Shown: positions 3,324 through 56,850 of the stretch, piece after piece
Numbering within the stretch: position 1 is the stretch's first letter
How the letters are laid out: every line of letters starts with the position of its first letter
NCBI GenBank assembly: GCA_965612745.1
Contig: CBFDTD010000001.1
Span: forward strand, 6,937-70,936
DNA: 64,000 nt
Reading direction: 5' to 3'
Origin: an uncultured bacterium
Lineage (GTDB): Bacteria; Chloroflexota; Anaerolineae; B4-G1
Position numbers and translations under genes: made by a program
The notes under the pieces: generated by a model
What the model was told of the DNA's origin: nothing
Database searches by the model: none
Seen by the model: only the letters and a program-made list of their open reading frames with translations

Positions 3324-3409
3324 CAGGGAACGTTTAGGAGTCCAAACTGCGTCGAAAAAGCACGGGCTCGCCCGCCGGAGGCTCCACTCGACGCTCTAAA
3401 CATTCCCTG
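3324..3409 (-). mobile_element. Internally deleted copy (about 86 bp) of the MITE-like element family, retaining both terminal inverted repeats
   Basis: The reverse complement reads cagggaatgtttagagcgtcg...agtggagcctccggcgggcgagcccgtg...ctttttcgacgcagtttggactcctaaacgttccctg. This matches the ends and 3' half of the elements at 6249 and 11277. Confidence 0.5.
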
Positions 3410-3439: not shown

Positions 3440-3640
3440 ATAATAACGGTCGTGCTAGACGGGGAGCTGGCGGTGCCCTGTACCCGCAATCCGCCATAGC
3501 GGGGTCGAATTCCCTCCCGAGGGTCGGGCCACTCGATACTGTCGGCGTCAAGCGGTGTTGAAGACCGGGTCCTGCGCGGCAGGAGCCTCCGAACCCCGCC
3601 AGGTCCGGGAGGAAGCAACGGTAAGGAGCCCCTCCTGGGC
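3440..3640 (+). promoter_or_regulatory. Candidate c-di-AMP (ydaO/kimA-type) riboswitch in the long 5' leader of the YabE-like gene
   Basis: Three blocks occur in the expected order. ACGGGGAGC...ACCCG is at about 3459-3490. GGGGUCGAAUUCC is at about 3503-3515 and resembles GGGGUGAAUCC. CCGAACCCCGCCAGGUCCGGGAGGAAGC is at about 3589-3616 and resembles CCGAACCCGNCAGCUAACCUCGUAAGC. A downstream hairpin, ggaggcggcgg-caatc-ccgccgcctcc, sequesters an AGGAGG. The consensus is recalled from memory and was not computed. Confidence 0.35.
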
Positions 3641-3768
3641 GCCGCAGGGGTGCCTAGTCGGAGCCGGTTGATTCCGGTAAGCCGGGTGGTGCGGTTCGAC
3701 GGGGGGTGCACGACCATTCGTCAAAGGAGGCGGCGGCAATCCCGCCGCCTCCCTTGCACCGATAGCGT

Positions 3769-5196: not shown

Positions 5197-6090
5197 ATGG
5201 ACGTGCGCCGATTGCTGGAGCAATGGGACCTCCGGCCAAGCAAGGGGCTGGGCCAGAATTTTCTCGTGGACCAGGCCGCACTAGAGAGAATCGTCGCCGC
5301 TGCTGAACTGACCCCCGATGACATCGTTTTGGAGGTCGGTGCGGGACTGGGGACGCTGACCAGACGGCTGGCTCAGAATGCCGGACACGTGGTGGCCGTC
5401 GAACTGGACCAACGGCTGATCCCTGTGTTACGGAGCGTCCTGGCCGACTTCGACAACGTCACGCTAGTCCAGGGCGACATCCTGTCGCTTGACCCCGTCG
5501 CCCTGATCGGCGCCGCCAACCTCCAATCTCCAACCCCAAACCTCCAATCTCCAACCCCAAACCTCCAATACAAAGTCGTCGCCAACCTTCCCTACTACAT
5601 CACCTCGGCCGTGCTGCGCCACTTGCTGGAGGCCAACCTCAAACCCCAGCGGATGGTGGTCACGGTGCAGCGGGAGGTGGCAGAGCGCATCGTCGCGCAG
5701 CCGGGACAGATGAGCCTGCTGGCAGTGAGCGTGCAATTCTACGGGCGGCCGCAACTGCTCTTTCGCATCAAGCCGGGCAGTTTCTATCCCCCGCCGGAGG
5801 TGGAATCAGCGGTGGTGCGGGTGGATCTCCATGCTGCACCGTCTGTGCCCGTGGGGGATACAGATACCTTCTTCCGCGTAGTGCGGGCCGGCTTCGCCCA
5901 GCGCCGCAAGCAACTCCGCAATGCCCTGGCCGCCGGCTTGGGGCTGTCACCCGAAGAGGCGGCGGCCAGATTGAGGGAAGTAGGCGTGGATCCCCGGCGG
6001 CGCGCACAGACGCTCAGCCTTGAGGAGTGGGCCAGGATCGTCCGTGCCTTAGGCACTGCTGCCCCCAGGGCTTTCCCAAAGTCCAGATAG
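5197..6090 (+). CDS. rsmA: 16S rRNA (adenine1518/1519-N6)-dimethyltransferase RsmA/KsgA, carrying an in-frame 21-bp tandem-repeat insertion
   Basis: The N-terminal GQNFLVD motif, the SAM-binding EVGAGLGTLT motif and the NLPYYI motif are all present. Confidence 0.9.
   Translation: MDVRRLLEQWDLRPSKGLGQNFLVDQAALERIVAAAELTPDDIVLEVGAGLGTLTRRLAQNAGHVVAVELDQRLIPVLRSVLADFDNVTLVQGDILSLDPVALIGAANLQSPTPNLQSPTPNLQYKVVANLPYYITSAVLRHLLEANLKPQRMVVTVQREVAERIVAQPGQMSLLAVSVQFYGRPQLLFRIKPGSFYPPPEVESAVVRVDLHAAPSVPVGDTDTFFRVVRAGFAQRRKQLRNALAAGLGLSPEEAAARLREVGVDPRRRAQTLSLEEWARIVRALGTAAPRAFPKSR
5516..5568 (+). repeat. 21-bp tandem repeat (aacctccaatctccaacccca), about 2.5 copies, in frame inside rsmA, encoding NLQSPTPNLQSPTPNLQ
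   Basis: The repeat is directly visible in the sequence. Confidence 0.85.
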
Positions 6091-6127: not shown

Positions 6128-6186
6128 GACGCCCCGCTTCAGCGGGGATTTTCCGGCTGCAGCCGGACGTCCAACCGATTTTAGCC
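6128..6186. repeat. REP-like double-hairpin element (ccccgcttcagcgggg + ccggctgcagccgg), family copy 1
   Basis: The same about 55-bp unit recurs at 31742-31848 (two copies) and at 56802-56850. Confidence 0.5.
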
Positions 6187-6248
6187 ACACCCAAATAGAT
6201 CAGCCAACCATTTGCCTTCACGTCGTGGGCGTGGTAGAATGAGTAATA

Positions 6249-6493
6249 CAGGGAACGTTCAGAGCGCCGTCTGGGTGCTGGCCATTCCCAAAAAGTCGCT
6301 GCCGGTTTCCCGCGCATCCGCCCGGCGGTGAACCACCGGGCTCAGCCGGCAAAGCCCTGCGGGCTGATCTCAGCCCCGAAGGGGCTTCGCTTTTGAGCCG
6401 GAGGCTTGAGCGTAGTGGAGCCTCCGGCGGGCGAGCCCGTGCTATGGCGGAAGCGACTTTTTCGACGCAGTTTGGACTCCTAAACGTTCCCTG
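6249..6493 (+). mobile_element. MITE-like element, about 245 bp, with terminal inverted repeats (cagggaacgtt...aacgttccctg) and long internal self-complementarity
   Basis: It is near-identical to 11277-11521. The TIRs are read directly. No transposase is encoded. Confidence 0.55.
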
Positions 6494-6526: not shown

Positions 6527-7573
6527 ATGAAGACCGAAAGTTTTCGTGGTCGCGACTTCATCACTTTGCTCGACTGGAGCAAGGAGGAAGTCGAGACCAT
6601 CCTGGACGTCGCCCTCGACCTGAAGAGACGGTACGCTATGGGCGAACTCCACGATCATATCCTGCGGGCCAAGACCCTGTTCATGATCTTCTACAACCAA
6701 TCCCTGCGCACCCGCAACTCCTTCGAAGCCGGGATGACCCAATTGGGCGGCCATGCCCATTACCTGGACCCCAGCAAGATCTACACCCCCGCCCTGCCCG
6801 GCAAAGAGGTGGCCTACTCCACCGAGCGCGTCTCCGACGTAGCGCGGGTGCTCTCCCGCATGGGCAATGCCATCGCCATCAGGTGTTATGGCGATCCGGT
6901 GGATTGGGTCTACGGCGGGGCCAACGAGATGATCCGCAACTTCGCCTACTGGGCCGACATCCCCGTGTTGAATATGGAAGACGATAAGTACCATCCCTTT
7001 CAGGCCCTGGCCGACGTCCTGACGGTCAAAGAGAAGTTCGGCACCTTCAAGGGCGTGAAATTCGTCATGTCCTGGGCCTACTCCCCCAGTGTCCACAAAC
7101 CCCGTGCGGTGCCCCAGAGCGCCATTATCGCCGCCACGATGATGGGCTGCGATACCGTGCTGGCCCATCCCCCGGAGATGGCGCTAGACCCCGAGGTCAT
7201 TGCCGCCTGCGAGAAATACGCCCAGATGAACGGCTCCTCCTTCGAGGTCGTCCACGATTTTGAGGAGGCGGCAAAGGGAGCCCACATTCTCTACCCCAAA
7301 GCCTGGGCGCCAGTTCAAATCTTCAAGCCCCCTGTGGGTGAGGACGACCCGCAACTGGCGCAGGAAATCTTCGATCGCTACAAGGACTGGAAGGCCACAC
7401 CCGAGTACATAGCCCTGGCCGATCCCAACGCCATTTATATGCACTGCCTGCCTGCCGATCGGAGTTGGGAGGTCGAGGACGAGGTCATTGATGGCCCACA
7501 GTCGGTGGTCTTCGACGAGGCCGAGAACCGACTGCACGTGCAGAAGGCAGTGATGAGTTTGGTGATGCGGTAG
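6527..7573 (+). CDS. YgeW-type (unknown/oxamate-type) carbamoyltransferase, paralog 1
   Basis: It belongs to the OTC/ATC superfamily. The carbamoyl-phosphate motif is SLRTRNSFE. The second-substrate loop motif is YMHCLPADRS. SWAYSPS...AHPPE blocks are present, and the overall pattern matches E. coli YgeW as recalled from memory. The RBS is aaaggagg. Confidence 0.75.
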   Translation: MKTESFRGRDFITLLDWSKEEVETILDVALDLKRRYAMGELHDHILRAKTLFMIFYNQSLRTRNSFEAGMTQLGGHAHYLDPSKIYTPALPGKEVAYSTERVSDVARVLSRMGNAIAIRCYGDPVDWVYGGANEMIRNFAYWADIPVLNMEDDKYHPFQALADVLTVKEKFGTFKGVKFVMSWAYSPSVHKPRAVPQSAIIAATMMGCDTVLAHPPEMALDPEVIAACEKYAQMNGSSFEVVHDFEEAAKGAHILYPKAWAPVQIFKPPVGEDDPQLAQEIFDRYKDWKATPEYIALADPNAIYMHCLPADRSWEVEDEVIDGPQSVVFDEAENRLHVQKAVMSLVMR

Positions 7574-7700
7574 CGAGTCAGCGAGTCGGCGAGTCAGCGA
7601 ATCAACGAATCAGCGCACTTGCAGACCTGCAAACTTGCAGACCTGCAAACTTGCAGCCTTGCAGACCTGCAAACTTGCAGCCTTGCAGACCTGCGGGAGG
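7574..7700. repeat. Two adjacent tandem 8-mer arrays in the spacer between the carbamoyltransferase paralogs. The first is (CGARTCRG)x5. The second is (CTTGCAGMC/CTGCAAA) in about 10 copies.
   Basis: The arrays are directly visible. ttgcagacctgcaa is itself near-palindromic. Confidence 0.85.
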
Positions 7701-7706
7701 AGTATA

Positions 7707-8744
7707 ATGGACCTGTATGGACGTGACTTTATCTGCACCCAGGACTGGACGTTCGATGAACTAATGGCGGTGCTCGATCTGGCGGCCAAGATGAAACGGG
7801 ATCGCTTCTCCGACCGCTGGACGAGCATCCTGAAGCACAAGACTTTCCTGATGTTCTTCTTCAACCCCTCGGTGCGCACACGCCTCTCCTTTGAGGCAGC
7901 AGCGACCGAACTGGGCGGCCACGCGCAGTTTATGACCCCCTCGGCGGGTCGCTTCAAGACGGAGAAGAAGGCCGGGGAGACCATCGAGGACGCCGCCCAG
8001 GTGATGGCCCGTTACGTGGCCGGCATAGGCATCCGCATCCTTGAGGACAAGATCCCCTACTACGGCGCGGGCGACGAGATGCTGCTGGAATACGCCCGGT
8101 GGGCCGACGTCCCCATCATCAACATGGCCGACGACCGCTTCCATCCCTGCCAGGCGCTGGCCGATGTGATGGGCTGGGCCGAGTGGTACGGCGAAGGCCC
8201 CGGTCGCCCGAATTACGAGGCCCTGCGTGGCAAGAAGTTCCTGCTCACCTGGGGCTCCGGCGCACTCGCCCGCTCCTGGTGCAGTGTGCAGGCCGCGCTG
8301 CTCATCGCCTCCCGCTTTGGCATGCACGTCACGATGGCCTACCCGGAGGGGTACGACCTCGACCCAGAGGTCATCGAATGGACCAGGCAGAACTGCTCCG
8401 CCAATGGAGCCTCCTTCGACATCGTCCACGACCCCGACAGCGGCTACGAAGGCGCGCACATCGTCTACTCCCGCAACTGGGTCAGCCCGGAGGCATACCA
8501 GGACGGCGTGTTCCAGAGGCAGGCCGAGATCGAGAAAGCGATGGCCCATCGGGGCTGGACGACCACCGCCGAGCGGATGGCCCGCACCGAGAACGCCATC
8601 TTCACCCACCCGATGCCGGTGGACCGGGGCAACGAGGTGACCGACGAGGTGGCTTCCGGCCCCCGCTCGGCCATCTACGACATCGCCGAGAACCGCCTGC
8701 ACGTGCAAAAGGCGCTGATGGCGCTGACGATGGGAGGGTATTGA
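7707..8744 (+). CDS. YgeW-family carbamoyltransferase, divergent paralog 2
   Basis: The motifs are SVRTRLSFE and HPMPVDRG (in place of HCLP), and the C-terminal ENRLHVQKALMAL is shared with paralog 1. The start was set at MDLYGRDFI after the gggaggag RBS, because the ORF-track start lies inside the repeat array. Confidence 0.7.
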   Translation: MDLYGRDFICTQDWTFDELMAVLDLAAKMKRDRFSDRWTSILKHKTFLMFFFNPSVRTRLSFEAAATELGGHAQFMTPSAGRFKTEKKAGETIEDAAQVMARYVAGIGIRILEDKIPYYGAGDEMLLEYARWADVPIINMADDRFHPCQALADVMGWAEWYGEGPGRPNYEALRGKKFLLTWGSGALARSWCSVQAALLIASRFGMHVTMAYPEGYDLDPEVIEWTRQNCSANGASFDIVHDPDSGYEGAHIVYSRNWVSPEAYQDGVFQRQAEIEKAMAHRGWTTTAERMARTENAIFTHPMPVDRGNEVTDEVASGPRSAIYDIAENRLHVQKALMALTMGGY

Positions 8745-8745
8745 T

Positions 8746-9699
8746 ATGAGGAAACGCATTGCGGTAGTCGCCATCGGCGGCAACTCGCTCATCAAGGATA
8801 AGAAACACATCACCGTGCCCGATCAATACCAGGCAGCGAAGGAGACCTGCTATCACATCGCCGACATGATCGAGCAAGGGTGGGATGTGGCCATTGGCCA
8901 CGGCAACGGCCCCCAGGTGGGCTTCATCTTGCGCCGGTCGGAGATCGCGGCCAAGGTCGCGGGGATGCACAAGGTGCCGCTCGACTCCTGCGGAGCCGAC
9001 ACTCAAGGAGCCATCGGCTACCACCTTCAGCAGAACCTATACAACGAGTTCAAGCGCCGGAGGATGAAGAAAGCCGCCACAACAGTGGTCACCCAGGTGC
9101 TGGTGGATAAGAACGACCCGGCTTTCCAGAACCCCACCAAGCCCATCGGCGGGTTTATGGATGAAGATGAGGCCAAAGAGCGCGCTGAGAAAGAGGGATG
9201 GACGGTGGTAGAGGACGCCGGGCGCGGCTGGCGACGGGTGGTACCCTCCCCTCTCCCTCAGGAGATCATCGAACTGGACGCGGTGCGGGAACTGCTGGAC
9301 GCAGGCATCATCACCATCACCGTCGGCGGTGGGGGCATCCCCGTCATCCGCAACGAGGAGGGCGACCTGCAAGGGATAGCGGCGGTCATTGACAAAGATT
9401 ACGCCTCATCGCTGTTGGCCCGCTCCATCGGTGCCGACCTTTTCCTCATCTCCACCGCCGTGGAGAAGGTCTACCTCAACTTCAACAAGCCCGACCAGAG
9501 GCCCATTGATGTGATGACGGTCGCTGAAGCGCAGAGGTACATGGAGGAAGGGCACTTCGCCAAGGGGAGCATGCTCCCCAAGATCCAGGCCATCGTGTGG
9601 TTCCTGGAGGCCGGGGGCAAAGAGGCGATCATCACCAGCCCCGAGAACATCGCCCGCGCGCTGCGAGGGGAGACCGGAACGCGCATCCTGCCGGATTGA
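8746..9699 (+). CDS. arcC: Carbamate kinase
   Basis: The N-terminus RIAVVAIGGNSL and the overall carbamate-kinase pattern are present. The gene is immediately downstream of the transcarbamylases. Confidence 0.85.
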   Translation: MRKRIAVVAIGGNSLIKDKKHITVPDQYQAAKETCYHIADMIEQGWDVAIGHGNGPQVGFILRRSEIAAKVAGMHKVPLDSCGADTQGAIGYHLQQNLYNEFKRRRMKKAATTVVTQVLVDKNDPAFQNPTKPIGGFMDEDEAKERAEKEGWTVVEDAGRGWRRVVPSPLPQEIIELDAVRELLDAGIITITVGGGGIPVIRNEEGDLQGIAAVIDKDYASSLLARSIGADLFLISTAVEKVYLNFNKPDQRPIDVMTVAEAQRYMEEGHFAKGSMLPKIQAIVWFLEAGGKEAIITSPENIARALRGETGTRILPD

Positions 9700-9726
9700 G
9701 TGGCACACCATTCTAAAGGAATTGAA

Positions 9727-10293
9727 ATGAGCAAGCAAACCGTATCCGTATCTCGTTTCACACGACTCATCCACCCTATGCCGGCCTTTCTGGTCACCTG
9801 TGCTGGAGAGGATGGCCGGCCCAACGCAATCGCCATCGCTTGGCTGACACCTGTCAGTGTTAATCCACCCCTGCTGGCCTTCGCCATCCGACCGCAGCGT
9901 TATTCCTACGAACTGCTGCAAGAGAACCCAGCCTTTGTGGTCAATGTGATGGCCTACGAGCGGGCCGTCGAGGTGCTCTTCTGCGGGCGCTGCTCGGGGC
10001 GGGATGTGAACAAGTTCGCCACAGCCAACCTCACGCCGGTGCCCGCTCAGGCAGTGAACGCCCCCGCCATCGCTGAGGCGCTGGCCCACGTGGAGTGCGA
10101 GGTGGAGGCGGAATATCCGGCCGGCGACCACGTCATCGTGGTGGGACGGGTGATGGCAGCCTCGGCCGAGGAGGGAATGCTGGTGGAGGGCCTGCGCGAT
10201 CTTATGGCCGCCCCGCCTCTTTTCCACCTCGGTGGCAGCTGCTTCACCACCAGCAGCGGCGAGATCTCAGAGCCGGACGTAGGACTGGATTGA
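9727..10293 (+). CDS. Flavin reductase-like (FMN-binding split-barrel) protein
   Basis: The flavin reductase-like domain pattern is present (HPMPAFLVTCAGEDGRPNAIAIAWLTPVS...). The start was set at MSKQ after the aaagga RBS. Confidence 0.65.
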   Translation: MSKQTVSVSRFTRLIHPMPAFLVTCAGEDGRPNAIAIAWLTPVSVNPPLLAFAIRPQRYSYELLQENPAFVVNVMAYERAVEVLFCGRCSGRDVNKFATANLTPVPAQAVNAPAIAEALAHVECEVEAEYPAGDHVIVVGRVMAASAEEGMLVEGLRDLMAAPPLFHLGGSCFTTSSGEISEPDVGLD

Positions 10294-10374: not shown

Positions 10375-10403
10375 TTGTCAATAGAACATTTAAGTGCTAT
10401 AAT
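10375..10403 (+). promoter_or_regulatory. Sigma70-type promoter for ssrA: TTGTCA, a 17-nt spacer, then TATAAT
   Basis: The -35 and -10 hexamers and spacing are read directly. The mature tmRNA 5' end lies about 19 nt downstream. Confidence 0.5.
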
Positions 10404-10421: not shown

Positions 10422-10845
10422 GGGGATGACAGGCTTCGACGGGGAAGGCTGATCACGGACGGCAAGCCGGGGCGCTCTGCCCCCGTTAACAACGGAGCAC
10501 ACACTCCAAAGTGCCAACAACACTTGGATCCCTGTCCCGCAGGCCGCGATGGCTGCCGTTCCACTGGCGGCCTAATCCGGCCCGAGGGATAAACTGACCG
10601 CACAGACGGTCACGTCCGCCCTGGTCTCGCGCCGGCAGGCCGGGGGCCGGGCGTAAGAGAGCCGGCGTGCGGCGCTCTGACGCCGATAGGAGCGCTCAAG
10701 CGGGAGTTTCGGCTCCCATCGGCTAGGCCCGGGTGTAGCGCGGTCGGCGGCGACTCCCCGGGCGAGAGGTAAAAGGCCGACTATGCTTGTAGAAGTCCCT
10801 GGTCGAATTCCTCGGACGCGGGTTCGATTCCCGCCATCTCCACCA
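10422..10845 (+). ncRNA. ssrA: tmRNA (SsrA)
   Basis: The 5' end is GGGGAUGACAGGCUUCGACGGGG. The 3' end is a tRNA-like GGACGCGGGUUCGAUUCCCGCCAUCUCCACCA with an encoded CCA. An internal tag reading frame ends ...AAMAAVPLAA followed by TAA. Confidence 0.85.
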
Positions 10846-10886: not shown

Positions 10887-11276
10887 GCGTCGGGCTAGTG
10901 GGCTGTGGTGCAAGTTCCGCACGAAATGGGATGCTTTGCCGCCCCGCCGGTGGATGAATCCAGCGGCTAATGCAGGTGAAAGCGCGGTGAACCGCGCTCC
11001 CGGCCGGGTTTCAGCCCGGTTTACCGGGCTTTGATGCTACTCGGCCGGGCGATTCATCGCCCGGCGTGGGCGGCCAATCTCTTGCAATATTTGTTGGCGC
11101 GCATAGGCTCCGGGATGAATGTGCGACAAGATGGCCTCTTGTCCTACTTGACCCACCGTTTACGCGCGCTAACCAATGTTTTGACTGCACACCACTGGCA
11201 GGGAAATGGCGAGATGTTGCACGGGCGGCCGACTTGTGCTACACTGTTTCCGTCTCAGGGGCGCAGCGGAGGATTC

Positions 11277-11521
11277 CAGGGAATATTTAGAGTGTCGTCT
11301 GGGCACTGGTCATCTCCAAAAAGTCGTTGCCGGTTTCTCGCACGTCCGCCCGGTGGTGAACCACCGGGCTCAGCCAGCAAAGCCCTACGGGCTGATCTCA
11401 GCCCCGAAGGGGCTTCGCTTTTGAGCCGGAGGCTTGAGCGTAGTGGAGCCTCCGGCGGGCGAGCCCGTGCTATGGCGGAAGCGACTTTTTCGACGCAGTT
11501 TGGACTCCTAAACGTTCCCTG
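11277..11521 (+). mobile_element. MITE-like element, second full copy (TIR ggattccagggaa...ttccctggattcc)
   Basis: It is about 95% identical to 6249-6493 by eye, with perfect 13-bp TIRs at 11271-11283 and 11515-11527. Confidence 0.55.
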
Positions 11522-11557
11522 GATTCCTGATGGCAATAGAAAAGAGGAGGGTGGACT

Positions 11558-12067
11558 ATGGAGTTCTCGGAGTTGATCGAAGCGCGGTACAGTGCACGGG
11601 CGTACAAGCCCGATCCGGTGGAGGACGAAAAACTGCAACAAGTGCTCGAAGCGGCACGCCTAGCACCGACCGCGGCCAACCGGCAACCCTTCCAGATCAT
11701 CGTGATCCACACGGTGGGGCGGGAGGCGGAGTTGAAGCGCATCTACAACAAGGACTGGTTCGTGCAAGCGCCGTTGGTCATCTGTGCCTGCGGGATTCCT
11801 GCCCGGGGCTGGAGGCGCCGGGACGGTAAAAGTTACTGTGATGTGGACGTCGCCATCGCTATGGATCACCTGATCCTGGCCGCCGCCAACCTGGGGCTGG
11901 GCACGTGCTGGATTGCCGCCTTTGATCCCGTTGCGGCGCGTGAGGTTCTGGGTCTGCCCGACGACGTGGAGCCTATCGCCTTCACGCCATTGGGGTACCC
12001 TGCTGACCGGCCCGGGCCGAAGAAGCGCAAAGCATTATCCGAACTGGTGCGGTATGAACGCTGGTGA
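11558..12067 (+). CDS. Nitroreductase-family protein
   Basis: The nitroreductase fold pattern (ARYSARAYKPDPV...LEAARLAPTAANRQPF) is present, and there is a strong RBS (aagaggagggtgg). Confidence 0.8.
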   Translation: MEFSELIEARYSARAYKPDPVEDEKLQQVLEAARLAPTAANRQPFQIIVIHTVGREAELKRIYNKDWFVQAPLVICACGIPARGWRRRDGKSYCDVDVAIAMDHLILAAANLGLGTCWIAAFDPVAAREVLGLPDDVEPIAFTPLGYPADRPGPKKRKALSELVRYERW

Positions 12068-23752: not shown

Positions 23753-23863
23753 CCTGTGCCTCCTGCTTCCTGCCTCCTGCTTCCTGCCTCCTGCCTCCTG
23801 CCTCTTGCCTCCTGCCTCCTGCTTCCTGCTTCCTGCTTCCTGCCTCCTGCCTCCTGCTGCCTC
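23753..23863. repeat. Heptamer tandem array (CCTGCYT)x about 15, filling the whole beta-gamma spacer. On the mRNA (minus) strand it reads as repeated AGGAGGC/AGGAAGC, which is Shine-Dalgarno-like.
   Basis: The array is directly visible, and its boundaries coincide with the beta stop codon and the gamma start codon. Confidence 0.85.
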
Positions 23864-26666: not shown

Positions 26667-28976
26667 TCAGAACAGTGGGATCTGGGCCACTTCTTGCTCG
26701 ACGATGGGGTCGAGGCCCAGCACGGTCTTGAGAGCGTGGCGGTCCAGTTCCTCCTTGGCGACCAGGCGGCGCAGATGACGAAACTTGATGAACTGCCATC
26801 CGCCCGCTTCGACGGCACTGGTCAGGCGCGGGTCGCGCTGCAATTTGAGGCCGACCAACTGTGCCCGCCCGCCGGGCAGGACAAGGCAACGCTGCGCCCC
26901 CTCATCAGCGGTGCGTTCGACGAGCAGGTGAGGCCCCAGGAGCGCCGTGGCCGAGACGGCGAAGACGTAAGCCTCCCGTCCTTCCTCCAGCCAGCGCACG
27001 TCCCAGCCATTGCCGCGCCGTCTCACCCTGAACCCCAGCCGTTTCCCTAACTTCACCAGATCACCACGCAGCGCCTTGAGTTCGGCGGCGCGCCGCTGAG
27101 GGTCGTCTTCGGGACGCAGTCGCCGTATCCTGTCTTCCTGCACACTGTACGAGTCTATGCAGACTTGAACCAGCGCCAGGTCGGGTGTGAGTGAGCCGGG
27201 GAAGCAGGCGTAGATAGCGTTGACCAATTCCTCCTCGTCCCACGTTGTACGCCGCCTCAGTAGTTCAAGCACCGTTGTTTCGACCCGGTCGGCCAGAGGT
27301 TCTTGCGCACCACAGGGGTCGGCCAGCCACCACAGCGGCTCATCGCCTGGCGCGGCCGTTTCCACTTGCACCAGCGGTGCCTTCTCGATGGCCTGCCGCG
27401 TGGTGTGAGCAGTGAAGCCAAGCGGGGGTGGGCCGTCATCGGGAAGGGCTGCGATGACGGTCAGCGCTCCCTCCCTGGTCAGCCCCGCATACACGCCGGC
27501 GTGCAGCATAGCCCAACCTGTCGGCTCCCCACGCTCCCGGAGGGTACTTACTGCTGCCTCCCCTGTCACGGTCGCTAGTTTGTGCTCCAGTACCTTCATA
27601 TCGGTCGTCGCATCTTGCCTCTTGCGTCTTGCCTCTTGCGGCTCCCAGCGCCAGACCAGCCGGTAGCCAACCTCGGGGCTGTAGCCCCAGCCCTCCAGGG
27701 TGTAGCCCGCGCCGCCGGCTGCCAGGCAGACCGATTCCAGCAGCGCGTCGTCGGGGTCGGAGAAGAGCGTGACCAGGTAGCCGTCGGAGGCGAGCAGCGG
27801 GCCGGCGGCCTCCAGCGCTCTCCGCAGCACGCGCCAATGCCACTCCCAATCGAACCTGCGGCGGCGCAGGAAGGGACGCATGGCTCGGGCGGCCGGCAAC
27901 TCCCATAGCCATCCCGCCCACAGCGCCGAGAGCGCCCAGAAGACCCCATCGGGCCGGGGCGGATCGGCGAAGATGAGAGAGACGCTGCCGGGCGGGACGA
28001 TCTCTCCTGCGTCGCGGGTCGCACGGCTGACCAGCGCGTACCCCTGGGCCTCGCCTCTCACCAGCGCCGTGACATCTGAAGCCTGCGGTATAGGAGACGG
28101 CGTCTCTGCGGTCAGCAAGCGCGAGAACCCCTCTTCAAAGCACAGCCAGACGTTGCGCTCGACATAGCGGGAGGGGACGCGCAGTGTGCGGGGGCGCGGT
28201 CGCTCCTCTCCGTAGGGGTCGAGGCTGGAGCCGGCATCGAAGCAATCGAGCAGTGTGCCGGTTAGTGCGACCTTGGCCTCCTCGTCGGCCTCCAGCCCTT
28301 CCAGCCGCAGCGCCAGATCCATCAATGCGGAGAGGTTGCGCGGCGTGTAGAGCGCGACCAGTTCGGCGGCCCGCTCCCGCGCCGGGTGGCCCGGGGGAGC
28401 CACGCGGTCGAGCGCGTAGTAGTAGGCCAGACCTCGCGGCAGGATGCGGCGGGCGGATGCGACATCCTCGTCGTCCGGCACCCCCTCCCGTACCTCCTCG
28501 CACCTGGGGCAGTGCACTGCTTTCCTGAACGGACGGCCCTCGTCGCGCTCCCAGGCGAACCACACAGCGGTGCCCGCCGCGCCGCAGGCCGGGCAGGTCG
28601 AGCGGTAGAGGGAGGTCAGGTAGCGGTGCAGAGGCACGTCCCCCTTGGGGCTATCGGCCAGGCGGGTGAAGGCGGCGTTGAGCGCGTCGGGTTCGCAGCG
28701 GCTCAGTCCCAGGCGAGCGATGACGAGGAGCAGGGGGTTGACGCTCAGGCCCAGTGCGCGGCGGTCAGCGGCGACCGTCTCCCGCACGAGCGTCGGCCCC
28801 TGGCAGAACAGGTCTACCACCAAGTCGCCGGGCCGAGTGAGGCTCTGCACGTATGCCCCCACCGCCCCGACCGGCTGAGTGGGGCGGTAGCGGGCCAACG
28901 GTCCGCCAGGTGCGCCTGGCCTTCCGGGGATGAACCAGGCTCGCTCGGTCGGGTGTGACTCGCGCAGGTCGTTCAC
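26667..28976 (-). CDS. Large (about 770 aa) methyltransferase-like protein with degenerate SAM and catalytic motifs and an inserted zinc ribbon. Its function is unknown.
   Basis: A motif-I-like VVDLFCQGPTL resembles the DxFxGxG loop but has the glycines replaced. DPPRP stands in for the (D/N)PP(Y/F) motif. There is a CPACG...CPRC zinc ribbon. The C-terminal roughly 300 aa show no recognised pattern. The start was chosen at an in-frame GTG (28976) preceded by a tatact -10-like box. The ORF-track N-terminal 50 aa look non-coding. Confidence 0.45.
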   Translation of the reverse strand: MNDLRESHPTERAWFIPGRPGAPGGPLARYRPTQPVGAVGAYVQSLTRPGDLVVDLFCQGPTLVRETVAADRRALGLSVNPLLLVIARLGLSRCEPDALNAAFTRLADSPKGDVPLHRYLTSLYRSTCPACGAAGTAVWFAWERDEGRPFRKAVHCPRCEEVREGVPDDEDVASARRILPRGLAYYYALDRVAPPGHPARERAAELVALYTPRNLSALMDLALRLEGLEADEEAKVALTGTLLDCFDAGSSLDPYGEERPRPRTLRVPSRYVERNVWLCFEEGFSRLLTAETPSPIPQASDVTALVRGEAQGYALVSRATRDAGEIVPPGSVSLIFADPPRPDGVFWALSALWAGWLWELPAARAMRPFLRRRRFDWEWHWRVLRRALEAAGPLLASDGYLVTLFSDPDDALLESVCLAAGGAGYTLEGWGYSPEVGYRLVWRWEPQEARRKRQDATTDMKVLEHKLATVTGEAAVSTLRERGEPTGWAMLHAGVYAGLTREGALTVIAALPDDGPPPLGFTAHTTRQAIEKAPLVQVETAAPGDEPLWWLADPCGAQEPLADRVETTVLELLRRRTTWDEEELVNAIYACFPGSLTPDLALVQVCIDSYSVQEDRIRRLRPEDDPQRRAAELKALRGDLVKLGKRLGFRVRRRGNGWDVRWLEEGREAYVFAVSATALLGPHLLVERTADEGAQRCLVLPGGRAQLVGLKLQRDPRLTSAVEAGGWQFIKFRHLRRLVAKEELDRHALKTVLGLDPIVEQEVAQIPLF

Positions 28977-29089
28977 GGTGTTCGTAGTATACCACCACAA
29001 GGGGGAGACGAAAAGTGATGAGTTGCTGGAGATTCCGCTTATGCTATAATGCACCACGTCTTGGCAAACCCACGCGGAGGTGAGGCAAT

Positions 29090-30280
29090 ATGCGTCACAG
29101 AGAGCACAGAAGGCGGCTACGCACATTGACGTGGATCACGGCCGGGTTAGCAGCGGTGGCACTCATCTCGGGCGCGCTGGGCGGCTGTGGCGGCGGGATG
29201 GCGGCTGTGACCCCCACACCGACCCGCACCCCTGCGCCCCCTGCGCCAACGGTCACTCCGCTCCCAACCTCCACGCCCACACCTGCCTCCACCCCTACTC
29301 CCACCCTTACTCCCACCCCCACGCCGTGGCCCGAAAACGTCAACCCGCTCACCGGCGAGGTGGTGGATGACCCTAGCCTGCTGGATCGGGTGCCGGTGGC
29401 GATCAAGATCTCTAATTACCCACCCCAGTACGTGTGGCCTCAGGCCGGCATCAACAGCGCCGACCTGATCTTCGAGCACTACAACGAAGGCTGGTTCGCC
29501 ACCCGCTGGACGGCGGTCTACCTGGGGAAGGACCCGGAGCGTGTGGGGCCGGTGCGCAGTGGTCGCCTGATTGACCTGGAGATTCCGGCGATCTACAAGG
29601 CGGTCCTGGCCTGCTCCGGCTTCAGCAATGGCGTGCTGGAGTTGGTCAGGAACTCGGACCTTTACCCCGACCGGGTCGCCTCGCCCAGCGTAGGCGTCGG
29701 TGAGCCGGTTTTCTACCGCGACTTCAGCCGTGACGTGCCTCTGGAACACACGATGTATACCAGCCCGGCGCTGGTGCGCACCTGGGCGGCTGAGCACGGC
29801 GTCGGCGGACGGCAGCATCTGGAGGGAATGGTCTTCTCCGAGGAAGCGACGGTCGAAGGGGAGCCCGCCACCTACGTCTATATCCCCTGGCATCTGCTTG
29901 ACGCCGAGTGGCGCTACGACGAGGCCGGCGGGCGCTACCTGCGCTGGTCCGATGGAGTCCCGCACACCGATGCGCTCGACGGGCGGCAACTCAGCGCGGC
30001 CAACGTGGTGGTGCTCTACGTGCCGCAGTGGGACACGGACATCATCGAAGAGCCGCACAGTGGCGCACTCTCCATCCAGTTTGCGCTCTGGTACTCCAAC
30101 CGCGCCATCATCTTTCGCGATGGAGTGCGCATTGATGCTTTCTGGCAGCGCTGGGAACGGGAGGACATGCTGACACTGACGGACGAGAAGGGCAACCCGA
30201 TCCCGCTGAAGGTCGGCAACACCTTCTTCGAAGTCGTTCCGGCCGGGGAACGGGAAATCGAGATTGTCGTTAAACCGTAG
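29090..30280 (+). CDS. Lipoprotein with a Pro/Thr-rich linker and a DUF3048-like (YerB-type) domain
   Basis: A lipobox (LGGCGG) and a PT linker are present. The mature domain's resemblance to the DUF3048 family is from memory and is low-certainty. Confidence 0.5.
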   Translation: MRHREHRRRLRTLTWITAGLAAVALISGALGGCGGGMAAVTPTPTRTPAPPAPTVTPLPTSTPTPASTPTPTLTPTPTPWPENVNPLTGEVVDDPSLLDRVPVAIKISNYPPQYVWPQAGINSADLIFEHYNEGWFATRWTAVYLGKDPERVGPVRSGRLIDLEIPAIYKAVLACSGFSNGVLELVRNSDLYPDRVASPSVGVGEPVFYRDFSRDVPLEHTMYTSPALVRTWAAEHGVGGRQHLEGMVFSEEATVEGEPATYVYIPWHLLDAEWRYDEAGGRYLRWSDGVPHTDALDGRQLSAANVVVLYVPQWDTDIIEEPHSGALSIQFALWYSNRAIIFRDGVRIDAFWQRWEREDMLTLTDEKGNPIPLKVGNTFFEVVPAGEREIEIVVKP

Positions 30281-31739: not shown

Positions 31740-31850
31740 GGCCCCGCTTCAGCGGGGATTTTCCGGCTGAAGCCGGACGTTCCACTCCGGCGGGCTCGCT
31801 TCAGCGGTGATTTTCCGGCTGAAGCCGGACGTCCCACTGATTTTAGCATA
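31740..31850. repeat. Two tandem REP-like double-hairpin units (ccccgcttcagcgggg / ccggctgaagccgg)
   Basis: These are family copies of 6128-6186 and 56802-56850. Confidence 0.5.
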
Positions 31851-44702: not shown

Positions 44703-46400
44703 ATGAAGCGGTGGGGATACTGGATCATCGTCGGAGTGGTGTCACTGGCCTTGGCTGCCCTGATCGGATGGGCCACCACTTACACTCCGCTGTTGACGCC
44801 CTCTGCGTCGGAGGAGTGGAGCCGGGGGCGGCTCCTCGGCGTGACGCCGGTGAGTATTCCGGTGGATGTCCAGGCGGCCCCCGATGGTGGGGTGTTCCTA
44901 ACCTGGGTGGACCTCGACGACCGGCTACACGTGGTGCGATTGGGGACAAGCGGGCAGGTCATCGCAGACTGGACGCCTGGCGTGGGAGCGGACATCCCAC
45001 GGGAACCGCGTCTCCTTGTGGGACCGGGAGACGAGATTCATCTTATCTGGCGGGAGACGGGTGGGGGACGCTCACTCTTGACCTATGCCCGGCTGAGCAG
45101 CGGGGCCTCTGTGCAGGTTGGCCCGCTCTCCCTTTCGCTGCCGGGGGATGAGGCCCAATCCCCATGTCTGGCTTTCGACCGTCAGGGCGAGGTTGAGGTC
45201 TTCTGGGTCGGCCAGGCGGGTATCTACCAGGTTGCCCTCAGCGCCGAGGGGGAGGTGCAGGGCGACCCTGTCCTGCTGGTCGAAGGTGGTGAGGACGTCA
45301 GTATCCAGGTGGACCGAGAGGGCATCTTCCATCTCACCTGGCTACAGGGGATGGGGCCAAACGAGAGGGTAATCTATTATGCTTTACTTGATCCAGAGCA
45401 GGGGGACTTGAGCCAGCCGGAGGAGATGAGTAGGGTCTTTCTACGTACCGGTCAGCGTGTGGAAAGTCTCGCCGTGGGCATTGATAGCAGTACGGGCTAC
45501 ATCTTGTGGGTTATCCAGGACTTGAGGGACATCAGTTCCAGAGCCCAGTATGCTTTCTTTCCTCTTGAGATACCGCGGCAGAAGAAGGTCAGGACCCTGC
45601 AGCTGGACGAGGGGAGCGATCCGCTGAGCCTTTGGGCTATGCGCGGCCAGTACGAGACGTTGCTGGTCGCCCTGACTGAGACCACTATGACGCCAGATGG
45701 CCCACAACTTCAAATCGGCGTCATCGGCTTGCGCGGCGAGCAGACGTCAGAGAATGCCGTTTGGGCAGCGGTTGAAAATCGGGGATCAACGACCGTCGTT
45801 GACCAGAGCAGTTGGCCGGAGGATCAGTACATCGTCACTGCTTCGGATCGCCCCTCCCTCAAGCCAAGTTTGGCAGTGGATACACAGAGCCATCTCCATC
45901 TGGTCTGGCTGGAGACCGGGGGCTTCGGAGTGTACCGTGTGGCCTACGCCAGCACCGCTCCAGGGGTGAAGGAGAATTATAATGCCTTGACCTTGTGGGA
46001 TGTAGTCAATGGTGCTTTGAGCGTCGCTATGCAACTTTTCCTGGCAGTGGGGCTGGCACCGGTCCTGGCTGTTGGTTGGTCTCTACTTCCTCTGATGTGG
46101 TTGATCGGCTATCATCTGGTCACCGGGTATGAGACCCTGACGGTACCGGGAGCACGAGTGGCCCTGGGCGTATCTGTGTTGCTGGAAGTGGTGTGCACGT
46201 ATTTGCTCTCTCCTTATCGAAGCGGCGTGCCTGGAATGATTCGGTGGATTGTGCCGCTTGCTGTTGCTGCTGTTGCTCTACTGTTAACCATGCTGTATCT
46301 GCGGAAGCGGGATGAGCAGTCCTTATTTGGGGCTTTCTTTGTCTTCGCTCTCATCTACGGTTTTTTTCAAGTGGCGTTTGTGGCACTCCTGCATTTGTAG
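44703..46400 (+). CDS. Hypothetical membrane protein with an N-terminal TM helix, a roughly 400-aa extracytoplasmic repeat (beta-propeller-like) region and a C-terminal four-TM bundle
   Basis: There are recurring strand motifs (HLIWRETGG, VEVFWVGQAG, FHLTWLQGMG, GYILWVIQD, LHLVWLETGG), and the ends are hydrophobic. No family was recognised. Confidence 0.45.
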   Translation: MKRWGYWIIVGVVSLALAALIGWATTYTPLLTPSASEEWSRGRLLGVTPVSIPVDVQAAPDGGVFLTWVDLDDRLHVVRLGTSGQVIADWTPGVGADIPREPRLLVGPGDEIHLIWRETGGGRSLLTYARLSSGASVQVGPLSLSLPGDEAQSPCLAFDRQGEVEVFWVGQAGIYQVALSAEGEVQGDPVLLVEGGEDVSIQVDREGIFHLTWLQGMGPNERVIYYALLDPEQGDLSQPEEMSRVFLRTGQRVESLAVGIDSSTGYILWVIQDLRDISSRAQYAFFPLEIPRQKKVRTLQLDEGSDPLSLWAMRGQYETLLVALTETTMTPDGPQLQIGVIGLRGEQTSENAVWAAVENRGSTTVVDQSSWPEDQYIVTASDRPSLKPSLAVDTQSHLHLVWLETGGFGVYRVAYASTAPGVKENYNALTLWDVVNGALSVAMQLFLAVGLAPVLAVGWSLLPLMWLIGYHLVTGYETLTVPGARVALGVSVLLEVVCTYLLSPYRSGVPGMIRWIVPLAVAAVALLLTMLYLRKRDEQSLFGAFFVFALIYGFFQVAFVALLHL

Positions 46401-51930: not shown

Positions 51931-52005
51931 GCCCCCATCGTCTAGTCTGGTCTAGGACACGGGCCTTTCAAGCCCGCGACAGGGGTTCGAATCCCCTTGG
52001 GGGCA
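51931..52005 (+). tRNA. tRNA-Glu (anticodon UUC)
   Basis: A cloverleaf was read by eye. The acceptor stem is gccccca/ugggggc, the T-arm is agggg-uucgaau-ccccu and the anticodon loop is cuUUCaa. CCA is not encoded. Confidence 0.85.
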
Positions 52006-56772: not shown

Positions 56773-56801
56773 GTTAGTTTGCGGTGCGAAACTCGACGGA
56801 G

Positions 56802-56850
56802 GCCCCGATTTAGCGGGGTTTTCCCGGCTGAAGCCGGGCCTCCAACCGAG
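56802..56850. repeat. REP-like double-hairpin element (ccccgatttagcgggg / cccggctgaagccggg)
   Basis: It is a family member of the elements at 6128 and 31740. Confidence 0.45.

Follow-up and report, generated by a model that had tools for sequence, protein, structure and literature searches.

Two divergent transcarbamylases encoded with a carbamate kinase in Anaerolineae: a possible ATP-yielding lower module for reductive uric-acid breakdown

Introduction

Which compound would be taken apart by two different transcarbamylases that share an operon with a single carbamate kinase? The question is raised by a 64-kb stretch of DNA from an uncultured bacterium of the Anaerolineae (hereafter the window), in which two transcarbamylase genes, here called CT1 and CT2, lie head to tail and are followed by genes for a carbamate kinase (CK) and a flavin-reductase-like protein (Table 1). 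A preliminary description of the locus had taken the two transcarbamylases for tandem duplicates of the YgeW type, belonging with the kinase to a catabolic module of an uncharacterised pathway, and had offered either a heteromeric enzyme or two substrate specificities as the reason for their number.

A reductive pathway for uric acid (2,8-dioxopurine) was published in 2025 for gut bacteria, in which one carbamoyl group gives one ATP (PMC12507026; bioRxiv 10.1101/2025.04.24.650524). In E. coli and Clostridium, YgeW phosphorolyses one ureido group of 2,3-diureidopropionate (DUPA) and YqeA turns carbamoyl phosphate into ATP, while YgeY hydrolyses the other ureido group and YgeX converts diaminopropionate to pyruvate (bioRxiv 10.1101/2025.04.24.650524; PMC12507026; PMC12990295).

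Judging from gene context, it would seem on balance that the operon in the window encodes the lower, carbamoyl-removing and ATP-yielding module in a variant form of this pathway, so that the pathway is probably not an uncharacterised one. We infer likewise the substrate, the ureido group attacked by each enzyme, the catabolic direction and the ATP yield; the upstream steps would be encoded elsewhere in the genome of this organism.

Results

CT1 and CT2 lie outside the characterised transcarbamylase families

Both proteins contain the two transcarbamylase domains, and the carbamoyl-phosphate-binding motifs are intact in each. CT1 carries the motifs SLRTR, HPFQ and HCLP, and CT2 the motifs SVRTR, HPCQ and HPMP, with a methionine replacing the leucine of HxLP. 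Each set is invariant in the 120 homologues of the respective protein, and the motif differences, to which the preliminary description had drawn attention, are therefore family traits and not noise. Family-specific differences between the two are found at 63 positions, most densely in the 80s, 120s, proline-rich and 240s loops. As far as can be judged from the alignments, the retention of the motifs together with the differences in the loops is consistent with both enzymes being active and taking different second substrates.

When the proteins were compared with curated hidden Markov models (HMMs), every model scored below its cut-off. The best was that for N-acetylornithine transcarbamylase (AOTCase, NF003384; 283.8 bits for CT1 and 252.8 for CT2 against a cut-off of 288), followed by the two models for ornithine transcarbamylase (OTCase; TIGR00658, 250.1 and 202.7 against 280.85; NF001986, 248.0 and 224.3 against 306). 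Scores for putrescine transcarbamylase (PTCase, TIGR04384; 196 and 186 against 500), YgeW (NF005538 and TIGR03316; 151.8 and 143.0 for CT1, 123.9 and 120.4 for CT2, against 453 and 500) and aspartate transcarbamylase (ATCase, TIGR00670; 109 and 99.6 against 237) were lower still. We have rejected all five canonical families for both proteins, in agreement with the earlier view that neither is a canonical OTCase or ATCase.

By sequence the nearest solved structures to both proteins are Xanthomonas AOTCase and Pyrococcus OTCase, and the predicted folds (pLDDT 88 for both) match the same two enzymes with TM-scores of 0.81–0.92; no YgeW structure was among the top 50 fold matches of the models. 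The closest of all is the AOTCase of Xanthomonas campestris (PDB 3kzc and related entries; TM-score 0.85–0.92, 36% identity), which is of similar length and shares the extended 120s loop, though its extended 80s loop has a counterpart in CT1 only. Unlike this enzyme, CT1 and CT2 lie outside an arginine cluster, have a kinase in the operon and have replaced the specificity residues. At the positions of Trp77, Glu92, Asn185 and Lys302, which define AOTCase (PMC4581275), CT1 has threonine, threonine, a gap and glutamate, and CT2 phenylalanine, a gap, a gap and glutamate. The ornithine-binding DxxxSMG motif of the OTCases is missing from both, the region reading YPKAWAPV in CT1 and YSRNWVSP in CT2.

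The knotted transcarbamylases (AOTCase, SOTCase and YTCase) have an extended 120s loop and a proline-rich loop (PMC4581275). The former is found in both CT1 and CT2. CT1 also has the proline-rich loop (SWAYSPSVHKPRAVPQ), which CT2 lacks, reading TWGSGALARSWCSVQ in that region; the 80s loop of CT1 is long. CT1 has its loop, of the form WAYSPSxxKPxxVPQ, in common with E. coli YgeW and a large related group, as well as an LPAD motif and a conserved lysine. YgeW is distinguished by additional helices at both termini, a lengthened 240s loop and an 80s loop that is short and contains a glutamine (PMC4581275); at 396 residues it is longer than CT1 (348) and CT2 (345), which lack its terminal extensions and its insertions in the 140s and 240s regions.

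A neighbour-joining tree places AOTCase, YgeW, CT1 and CT2 in one clade, split from the OTCases with 96% bootstrap support. Within it the AOTCase clade (82%) excludes CT1 and CT2, which fall into distinct clades of their own (76% and 94%, respectively). Because the deep nodes are weak (10–20% bootstrap), which tells against the uric-acid reading, we relied for placement on the scores from three profiles built from transcarbamylase groups defined by their gene context. All three proteins score best on the profile of the urate-cluster transcarbamylases: CT1 with 399 bits against 297 for the AOTCase group and 271 for the arginine-cluster OTCases, CT2 with 298 against 259 and 227, and E. coli YgeW with 290 against 144 and 122. 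Of the two, CT1 appears on these scores to be closer to the urate-cluster enzymes and YgeW. The label 'YgeW-type' stands, then, in a loose, clade-level sense that is borne out by the urate-cluster profile and by the loop and LPAD motif of CT1; it does not extend to the YgeW family itself, given the HMM scores, the missing extensions and insertions, and the better match of AOTCase both as curated model and as structure. A recent tandem duplication was also rejected, as CT1 and CT2 are only 39% identical and belong to separate old clades, each with other relatives.

The triad is conserved and in relatives lies beside uric-acid genes

Relatives of CT1 were sought in a scan with one genome per species, and those of CT2 in a metagenome scan with the CT2 alignment, which gave 80 loci at 73–100% identity and, with other searches, 82 CT2-clade loci. 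Relatives of CT1 at 54–70% identity are few. Those at 41–48% span Chloroflexota, Actinomycetota, Acidobacteriota, Verrucomicrobiota, Atribacterota, Caldisericota, Clostridia and Gammaproteobacteria, and are almost always clustered with ssnA, hyuA, xdhA/B/C/D, ygfK, guaD and CK. Below 40% identity the matches are to ordinary argF, located in argC-argB-argH clusters.

The pairing is conserved, as the preliminary description would have it: of the 54 loci with enough upstream sequence, 41 have CT1 ahead of CT2, and CK follows CT2 in 58 of 62 related loci. This triad occurs in many Anaerolineae contigs and also in Ca. Hakubella (Actinomycetota) and a metagenome-assembled genome of the Thermotogae. 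The names attached to homologues indicate Anaerolineae (Chloroflexota), and copies identical to that of the window are known from Guaymas Basin sediment and hydrothermal-vent metagenomes. In the complete Anaerolineae genome CP070818.1 the CT2 locus looks rearranged and the kinase gene is truncated, and the contigs of the distant CT2-like representatives P0211 and P0136 are too short for a reading of their gene context.

Directly beside the triad, ygfK, ssnA, hyuA or xdh is found in 15 of the 82 CT2-clade loci. The gene orders include GntR, ThrC-like, CysK-like, CT1, CT2, CK, xdhBC, xdhD, ygfK (L134); CT1, CT2, CK, ygfK, xdhD (L130); CT2, CK, ygfK, ssnA (L121); and hyuA, ssnA and a ygfK-like gene divergent from CysK-like, CT1, CT2, CK and ThrC-like genes (L157 and L169). 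The YgfK and SsnA proteins encoded there exceed their curated equivalog cut-offs, with 958.6 bits (cut-off 835) and 535 bits (cut-off 444), respectively. Urate markers were present in 8 of 30 long triad-related loci, as against 1 of 41 control loci with an ordinary OTCase (p = 0.003). The same 30 loci frequently contain two pyridoxal-phosphate (PLP) enzymes, one ThrC-like (18/30) and one CysK-like (16/30), and a GntR/UTRA regulator (13/30); neither a YgeY-like M20 hydrolase nor a YgeX orthologue was found in any of them.

The PLP genes accompany the triad where YgeX would be expected (L130, 6068–8839; L134, 3191–6042; L122, 12041–14870; L007, 13110–17685). The ThrC-like enzyme scores 301.5 bits, just under the cut-off of 303 of the threonine synthase model, and the CysK-like enzyme has 489 residues. 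Genes for a metallo-beta-lactamase-fold hydrolase and a DppA-type D-aminopeptidase sometimes lie between the two.

The near miss of CT1 on the AOTCase model and the identity of the closest solved structures would be in keeping with an anabolic module, in which the kinase would supply carbamoyl phosphate to CT1 or CT2, acting as an (acyl)ornithine transcarbamylase for arginine synthesis. Besides the loss of the AOTCase residues and the OTCase motif, none of the 82 CT2-clade loci lies beside an arg gene, in contrast to the matches below 40% identity with their argC-argB-argH clusters, and one triad contig (L174) carries a separate, ordinary argF. Because of this argF and the lack of arg neighbours, we consider a role in arginine synthesis to be largely refuted and very improbable. 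The module looks catabolic, as had been proposed, with a true carbamate kinase in the operon: CK passes the cut-offs of both curated models (TIGR00746, 385.4 bits against 358.25; NF009007, 421.7 against 266).

A catabolic module might nevertheless act on other N-carbamoyl compounds, such as N-carbamoyl-beta-alanine from reductive pyrimidine breakdown or N-carbamoyl amino acids derived from hydantoins, with links to urate only in some relatives. The copy in the window is isolated from pathway genes, the HyuA-like neighbours are of the dihydropyrimidinase/hydantoinase type and score below the equivalog cut-off, and a catabolic beta-alanine transcarbamylase has been proposed, though not proven (PMC4581275). 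We think this unlikely: the SsnA and YgfK beside the triad do pass their equivalog cut-offs, a substrate with two ureido groups naturally explains the need for two different transcarbamylases, and the PLP enzymes, found in 16–18 of the 30 long loci, would suit an alpha-amino acid with a beta leaving group.

A second transcarbamylase or a hydrolase, but not both, in 30 urate-type loci

A separate survey covered 30 loci that pair a transcarbamylase of the CT1 supergroup with urate or xdh markers. A YgeY-like M20 hydrolase alone was found in 10 of these, a second transcarbamylase alone (CT2 or a pseudo-ATCase) in 17, neither in 3 and both in none. The exclusivity gives a Fisher p of about 1e-5, a value that is not corrected for phylogeny, and it is as expected if the second transcarbamylase can do the job of the hydrolase. 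In Anaerolineae the part of second transcarbamylase falls to CT2, in other groups to a pseudo-ATCase, and all three arrangements occur in Chloroflexota.

The pseudo-ATCase is a pyrB-like protein of about 317 residues that passes the ATCase TIGRFAM cut-off and is without the RxQxER aspartate motif. It lies beside a urate-cluster transcarbamylase and kinase in ten species genomes (L016, L020, L025, L026, L027, L030, L035, L036, L038 and L039), about 1 kb upstream of the CT1-like gene except in L026, where it is about 5 kb off, and was never found with a complete YgeY-like hydrolase. These clusters would be a second, independent arrangement with two transcarbamylases.

The steps that we propose for the module are as follows. 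CT1 would carry out the YgeW-type phosphorolysis of one ureido group of DUPA, and CT2, in the place of YgeY, would phosphorolyse the remaining one. CK would turn both carbamoyl phosphates into ATP, ammonia and CO2, to give two ATP per purine and not one. This would leave 2,3-diaminopropionate to be broken down to pyruvate and ammonia, a step for which the relatives probably use the ThrC-like and/or CysK-like PLP enzymes found with the module. In its full form the proposal is that CT1 and CT2 are two unnamed specificities, one for each ureido group of DUPA; that with CK they make up a fully phosphorolytic lower half of the pathway with two ATP per purine; that such an arrangement arose at least twice, with CT2 in Anaerolineae and with the pseudo-ATCase in other Chloroflexota, Actinomycetota and Atribacterota, each time displacing YgeY; and that a ThrC-like or CysK-like enzyme has replaced YgeX. 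This more detailed version we put forward tentatively, holding it to be a real possibility that falls a little short of probable.

Active sites of transcarbamylases sit at subunit interfaces and mixed trimers are conceivable, so that CT1 and CT2 could instead form one heteromeric enzyme that acts on a single ureido substrate. Such an enzyme would be in line with the adjacency and co-conservation of the two genes. However, the 13 loci of the 54 in which CT2 and CK occur without CT1, the CT1-clade genes that occur without CT2, and the full set of invariant catalytic motifs in both proteins all speak against it, and a separate step is a better fit to the sister clusters, which fill the second position with an unrelated pseudo-ATCase or a hydrolase. 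A heteromer would seem improbable, and two specificities are the better of the two options given in the preliminary description.

A possibly allantoin-type cluster in Ca. Hakubella

In Ca. Hakubella thermalkaliphila (L001, 1–13670) the triad follows genes for GntR, a xanthine/uracil permease, mocA-like and xdhC-like proteins, allF, allG, a PF04199 cyclase, allH (oxamate transcarbamylase) and thiolase-like proteins. This cluster would hold three enzymes that produce carbamoyl phosphate together with one kinase. Two gene calls cover its CT2, suggesting either a frameshift or a mistake in the assembly.

The cluster lends itself to a reading in which the pair strips the ureido groups from allantoate (diureidoacetate) and from its ureidoglycine or ureidoglycolate products, in a fully phosphorolytic allantoin route like that of Rubrobacter. 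Phosphorolysis of allantoate by a transcarbamylase has been demonstrated (PMC4016543), and allantoate and DUPA are structurally alike (PMC12990295). Yet no homologue of allB, allC, allD or allE is present in any triad locus, the recurrent neighbours in Anaerolineae (ygfK, ssnA and hyuA) mark the reductive route, and the enzyme known to act on allantoate is a member of the ATCase-like clade, not of that of CT1 and CT2. An allantoate route is, in our estimation, a poor prospect for the pair.

Several observations weigh against placing the module in the reductive uric-acid pathway, in addition to the weak deep nodes and the uncorrected statistic mentioned above. The window itself is without a ssnA, hyuA, ygfK, xdh, PLP or GntR gene, and only about a quarter of the long related loci have urate genes within 10 kb. 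The 13 CT2 loci without an adjacent CT1 show that the pair is not always together; one Thermotogae contig (L011) has an M20 hydrolase together with CT1, CT2 and CK; the Hakubella triad, beside allFGH, points to an allantoin-type route; and CT1-clade singletons are found in unrelated ABC-transporter operons with no kinase (L008 and L010).

These singletons (L010, 6183–17836; L008, 11–2464) are 69% identical and lie amid genes for ABC-transporter permeases and binding proteins, with no CT2. Those of L010 adjoin genes for an ADP-ribosylglycohydrolase, a xylose-isomerase-like TIM-barrel protein and the one-carbon enzymes Fhc, Ftr and Mch. They may have a different function within the same clade.

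The operon and other features of the window

CT1, CT2, CK and the flavin-reductase-like gene form one compact operon on the plus strand, in the order first described, flanked by ksgA/rsmA (5197–6090) on one side and the tmRNA gene on the other (Table 1). The mechanically derived open reading frame (ORF) of CT2 begins with a TTG at 7635; the real start is the ATG at 7707, which is preceded by a GGAGG site, and the resulting length of 345 residues is also the one called on four further contigs of this organism. CK starts one base past the stop codon of CT2.

For the flavin-reductase-like gene, other gene calls indicate that the start is probably the ATG at 9727 (188 residues). Among the related loci it occurs only on contigs of this organism and, in another gene order, in L146. 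It was rejected as a conserved partner of the module and is an accessory specific to this lineage.

The rest of the window is taken up by housekeeping genes: dnaN, mutL, SRP (signal recognition particle) RNA, rho, fbp, cdsA, uppS, frr, pyrH, tsf, rpsB, peptide ABC transporters and rpoB. No other purine genes and no arginine or deiminase genes are present in the 64 kb, and no deiminase or amidohydrolase lies near the operon, as the preliminary description had stated. Two long ORFs have no Pfam match (26667–29126, minus strand, 819 residues; 44703–46400, plus strand, 565 residues). The first may not be a real gene, since its product is absent from the gene-call collection; the sequence is GC-rich.

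Table 1. Positions of the operon, its leader and spacer, and other features in the 64-kb window
Feature	Position	Strand	Remarks
CT1, transcarbamylase (348 aa)	6527–7573	+	PF02729 and PF00185; proposed YgeW equivalent
CT2, transcarbamylase (345 aa)	7707–8744	+	PF02729 and PF00185; proposed replacement of YgeY
Carbamate kinase (CK), arcC type (317 aa)	8746–9699	+	Curated models TIGR00746 and NF009007
Flavin-reductase-like gene	9700–10293	+	PF01613
Promoter-like site, TTGCCT, 17-nt spacer, TG-TAGAAT	6212–6240	+	Consensus scan; pattern match only
5′ leader of CT1, 253 nt, strongly structured	6241–6493	+	RNA fold z-score −5.7
Second copy of the 253-nt leader element	11269–11521		Same orientation as the leader; 92% identical; just downstream of the tmRNA gene
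Partial inverted copy of the 253-nt leader element	3324–3396
CT1–CT2 spacer	7572–7694		Tandem 8-nt (AGCGAGTC) and 24-nt repeats; Tandem Repeats Finder
Bacterial large SRP RNA gene	3450–3713
Near-consensus promoter-like site, TTGTCA, 17-nt spacer, TATAAT	10375–10403		Just upstream of the tmRNA gene
tmRNA gene	10422–10845
tRNA gene	51931–52005

The structured leader of CT1 was considered as a riboswitch and rejected: nothing in Rfam matched it, whether at the gathering threshold or at relaxed ones, and it is a repeated element, direct copies of which bracket the operon together with the tmRNA gene. The second copy is overlapped by an ORF at 11031–11576 that has no Pfam match and probably does not represent a gene. 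The spacer between CT1 and CT2 measures 133 nt here but about 109 nt on other contigs of this organism, and similar runs of octamers fill the spacer in L095, L096 and L099–L101. Further heptamer or octamer arrays lie at 5516–5569 and 23757–23857. A short palindromic repeat unit, CCCCGCTTCAGCGGGGATTTTCCGGCTG, is found between genes at 6132–6159, 31742–31769, 31794–31821 and about 56797–56849; no copies would be expected by chance, and it looks like an element of the REP (repetitive extragenic palindromic) or MITE (miniature inverted-repeat transposable element) type.

Discussion

The system that most resembles the triad is that of E. coli, where the transcarbamylase YgeW is likewise coupled to a carbamate kinase, YqeA. 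The relatives of the triad adjoin the genes of that system (ygfK, ssnA, hyuA and xdh), and the resemblance extends to the proline-rich loop, LPAD motif and lysine of CT1 and to the urate-cluster profile on which YgeW, CT1 and CT2 all score best. Here, however, there are two transcarbamylases and neither YgeY nor YgeX, and the relatives have ThrC-like and CysK-like PLP genes. The ureidoglycine transcarbamylase of Rubrobacter xylanophilus, a pseudo-ATCase that works with a CK, also phosphorolyses one ureido group of a di-ureido purine product (PMC4016543), and similar pseudo-ATCases lie beside CT1-like enzymes in the 10 urate-type clusters described above. It differs in belonging to the ATCase-like branch, in serving the oxidative allantoin route and in being a single transcarbamylase. 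The deiminase-linked systems follow the same logic, phosphorolysis by a transcarbamylase and then CK to gain ATP, but no deiminase is nearby here, the OTCase and PTCase models score far below cut-off, and there are two transcarbamylases rather than one.

Neither a version of the pathway with two transcarbamylases nor the CT1 and CT2 clades appear in the two primary pathway papers, in the commentary on them or in a full-text search for the pathway intermediates. Homologues of YgeW were found by Pfam domain only in one of the primary papers, while at least 63% identity was demanded in the other, and neither criterion would have singled out CT1 and CT2.

If the proposed route is true, both carbamoyl groups would be recovered and the substrate-level gain of ATP from purines doubled, which matters for energy-limited sediment fermenters such as the Anaerolineae. 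Confirmation would give a function to two large groups of proteins that are annotated as 'ornithine' or 'N-acetylornithine carbamoyltransferase', and would provide two enzymes of opposite regiospecificity that could settle which of the ureido groups is attacked by enzymes of the YgeW type. They would also offer alternative parts for engineered urate-degrading probiotics.

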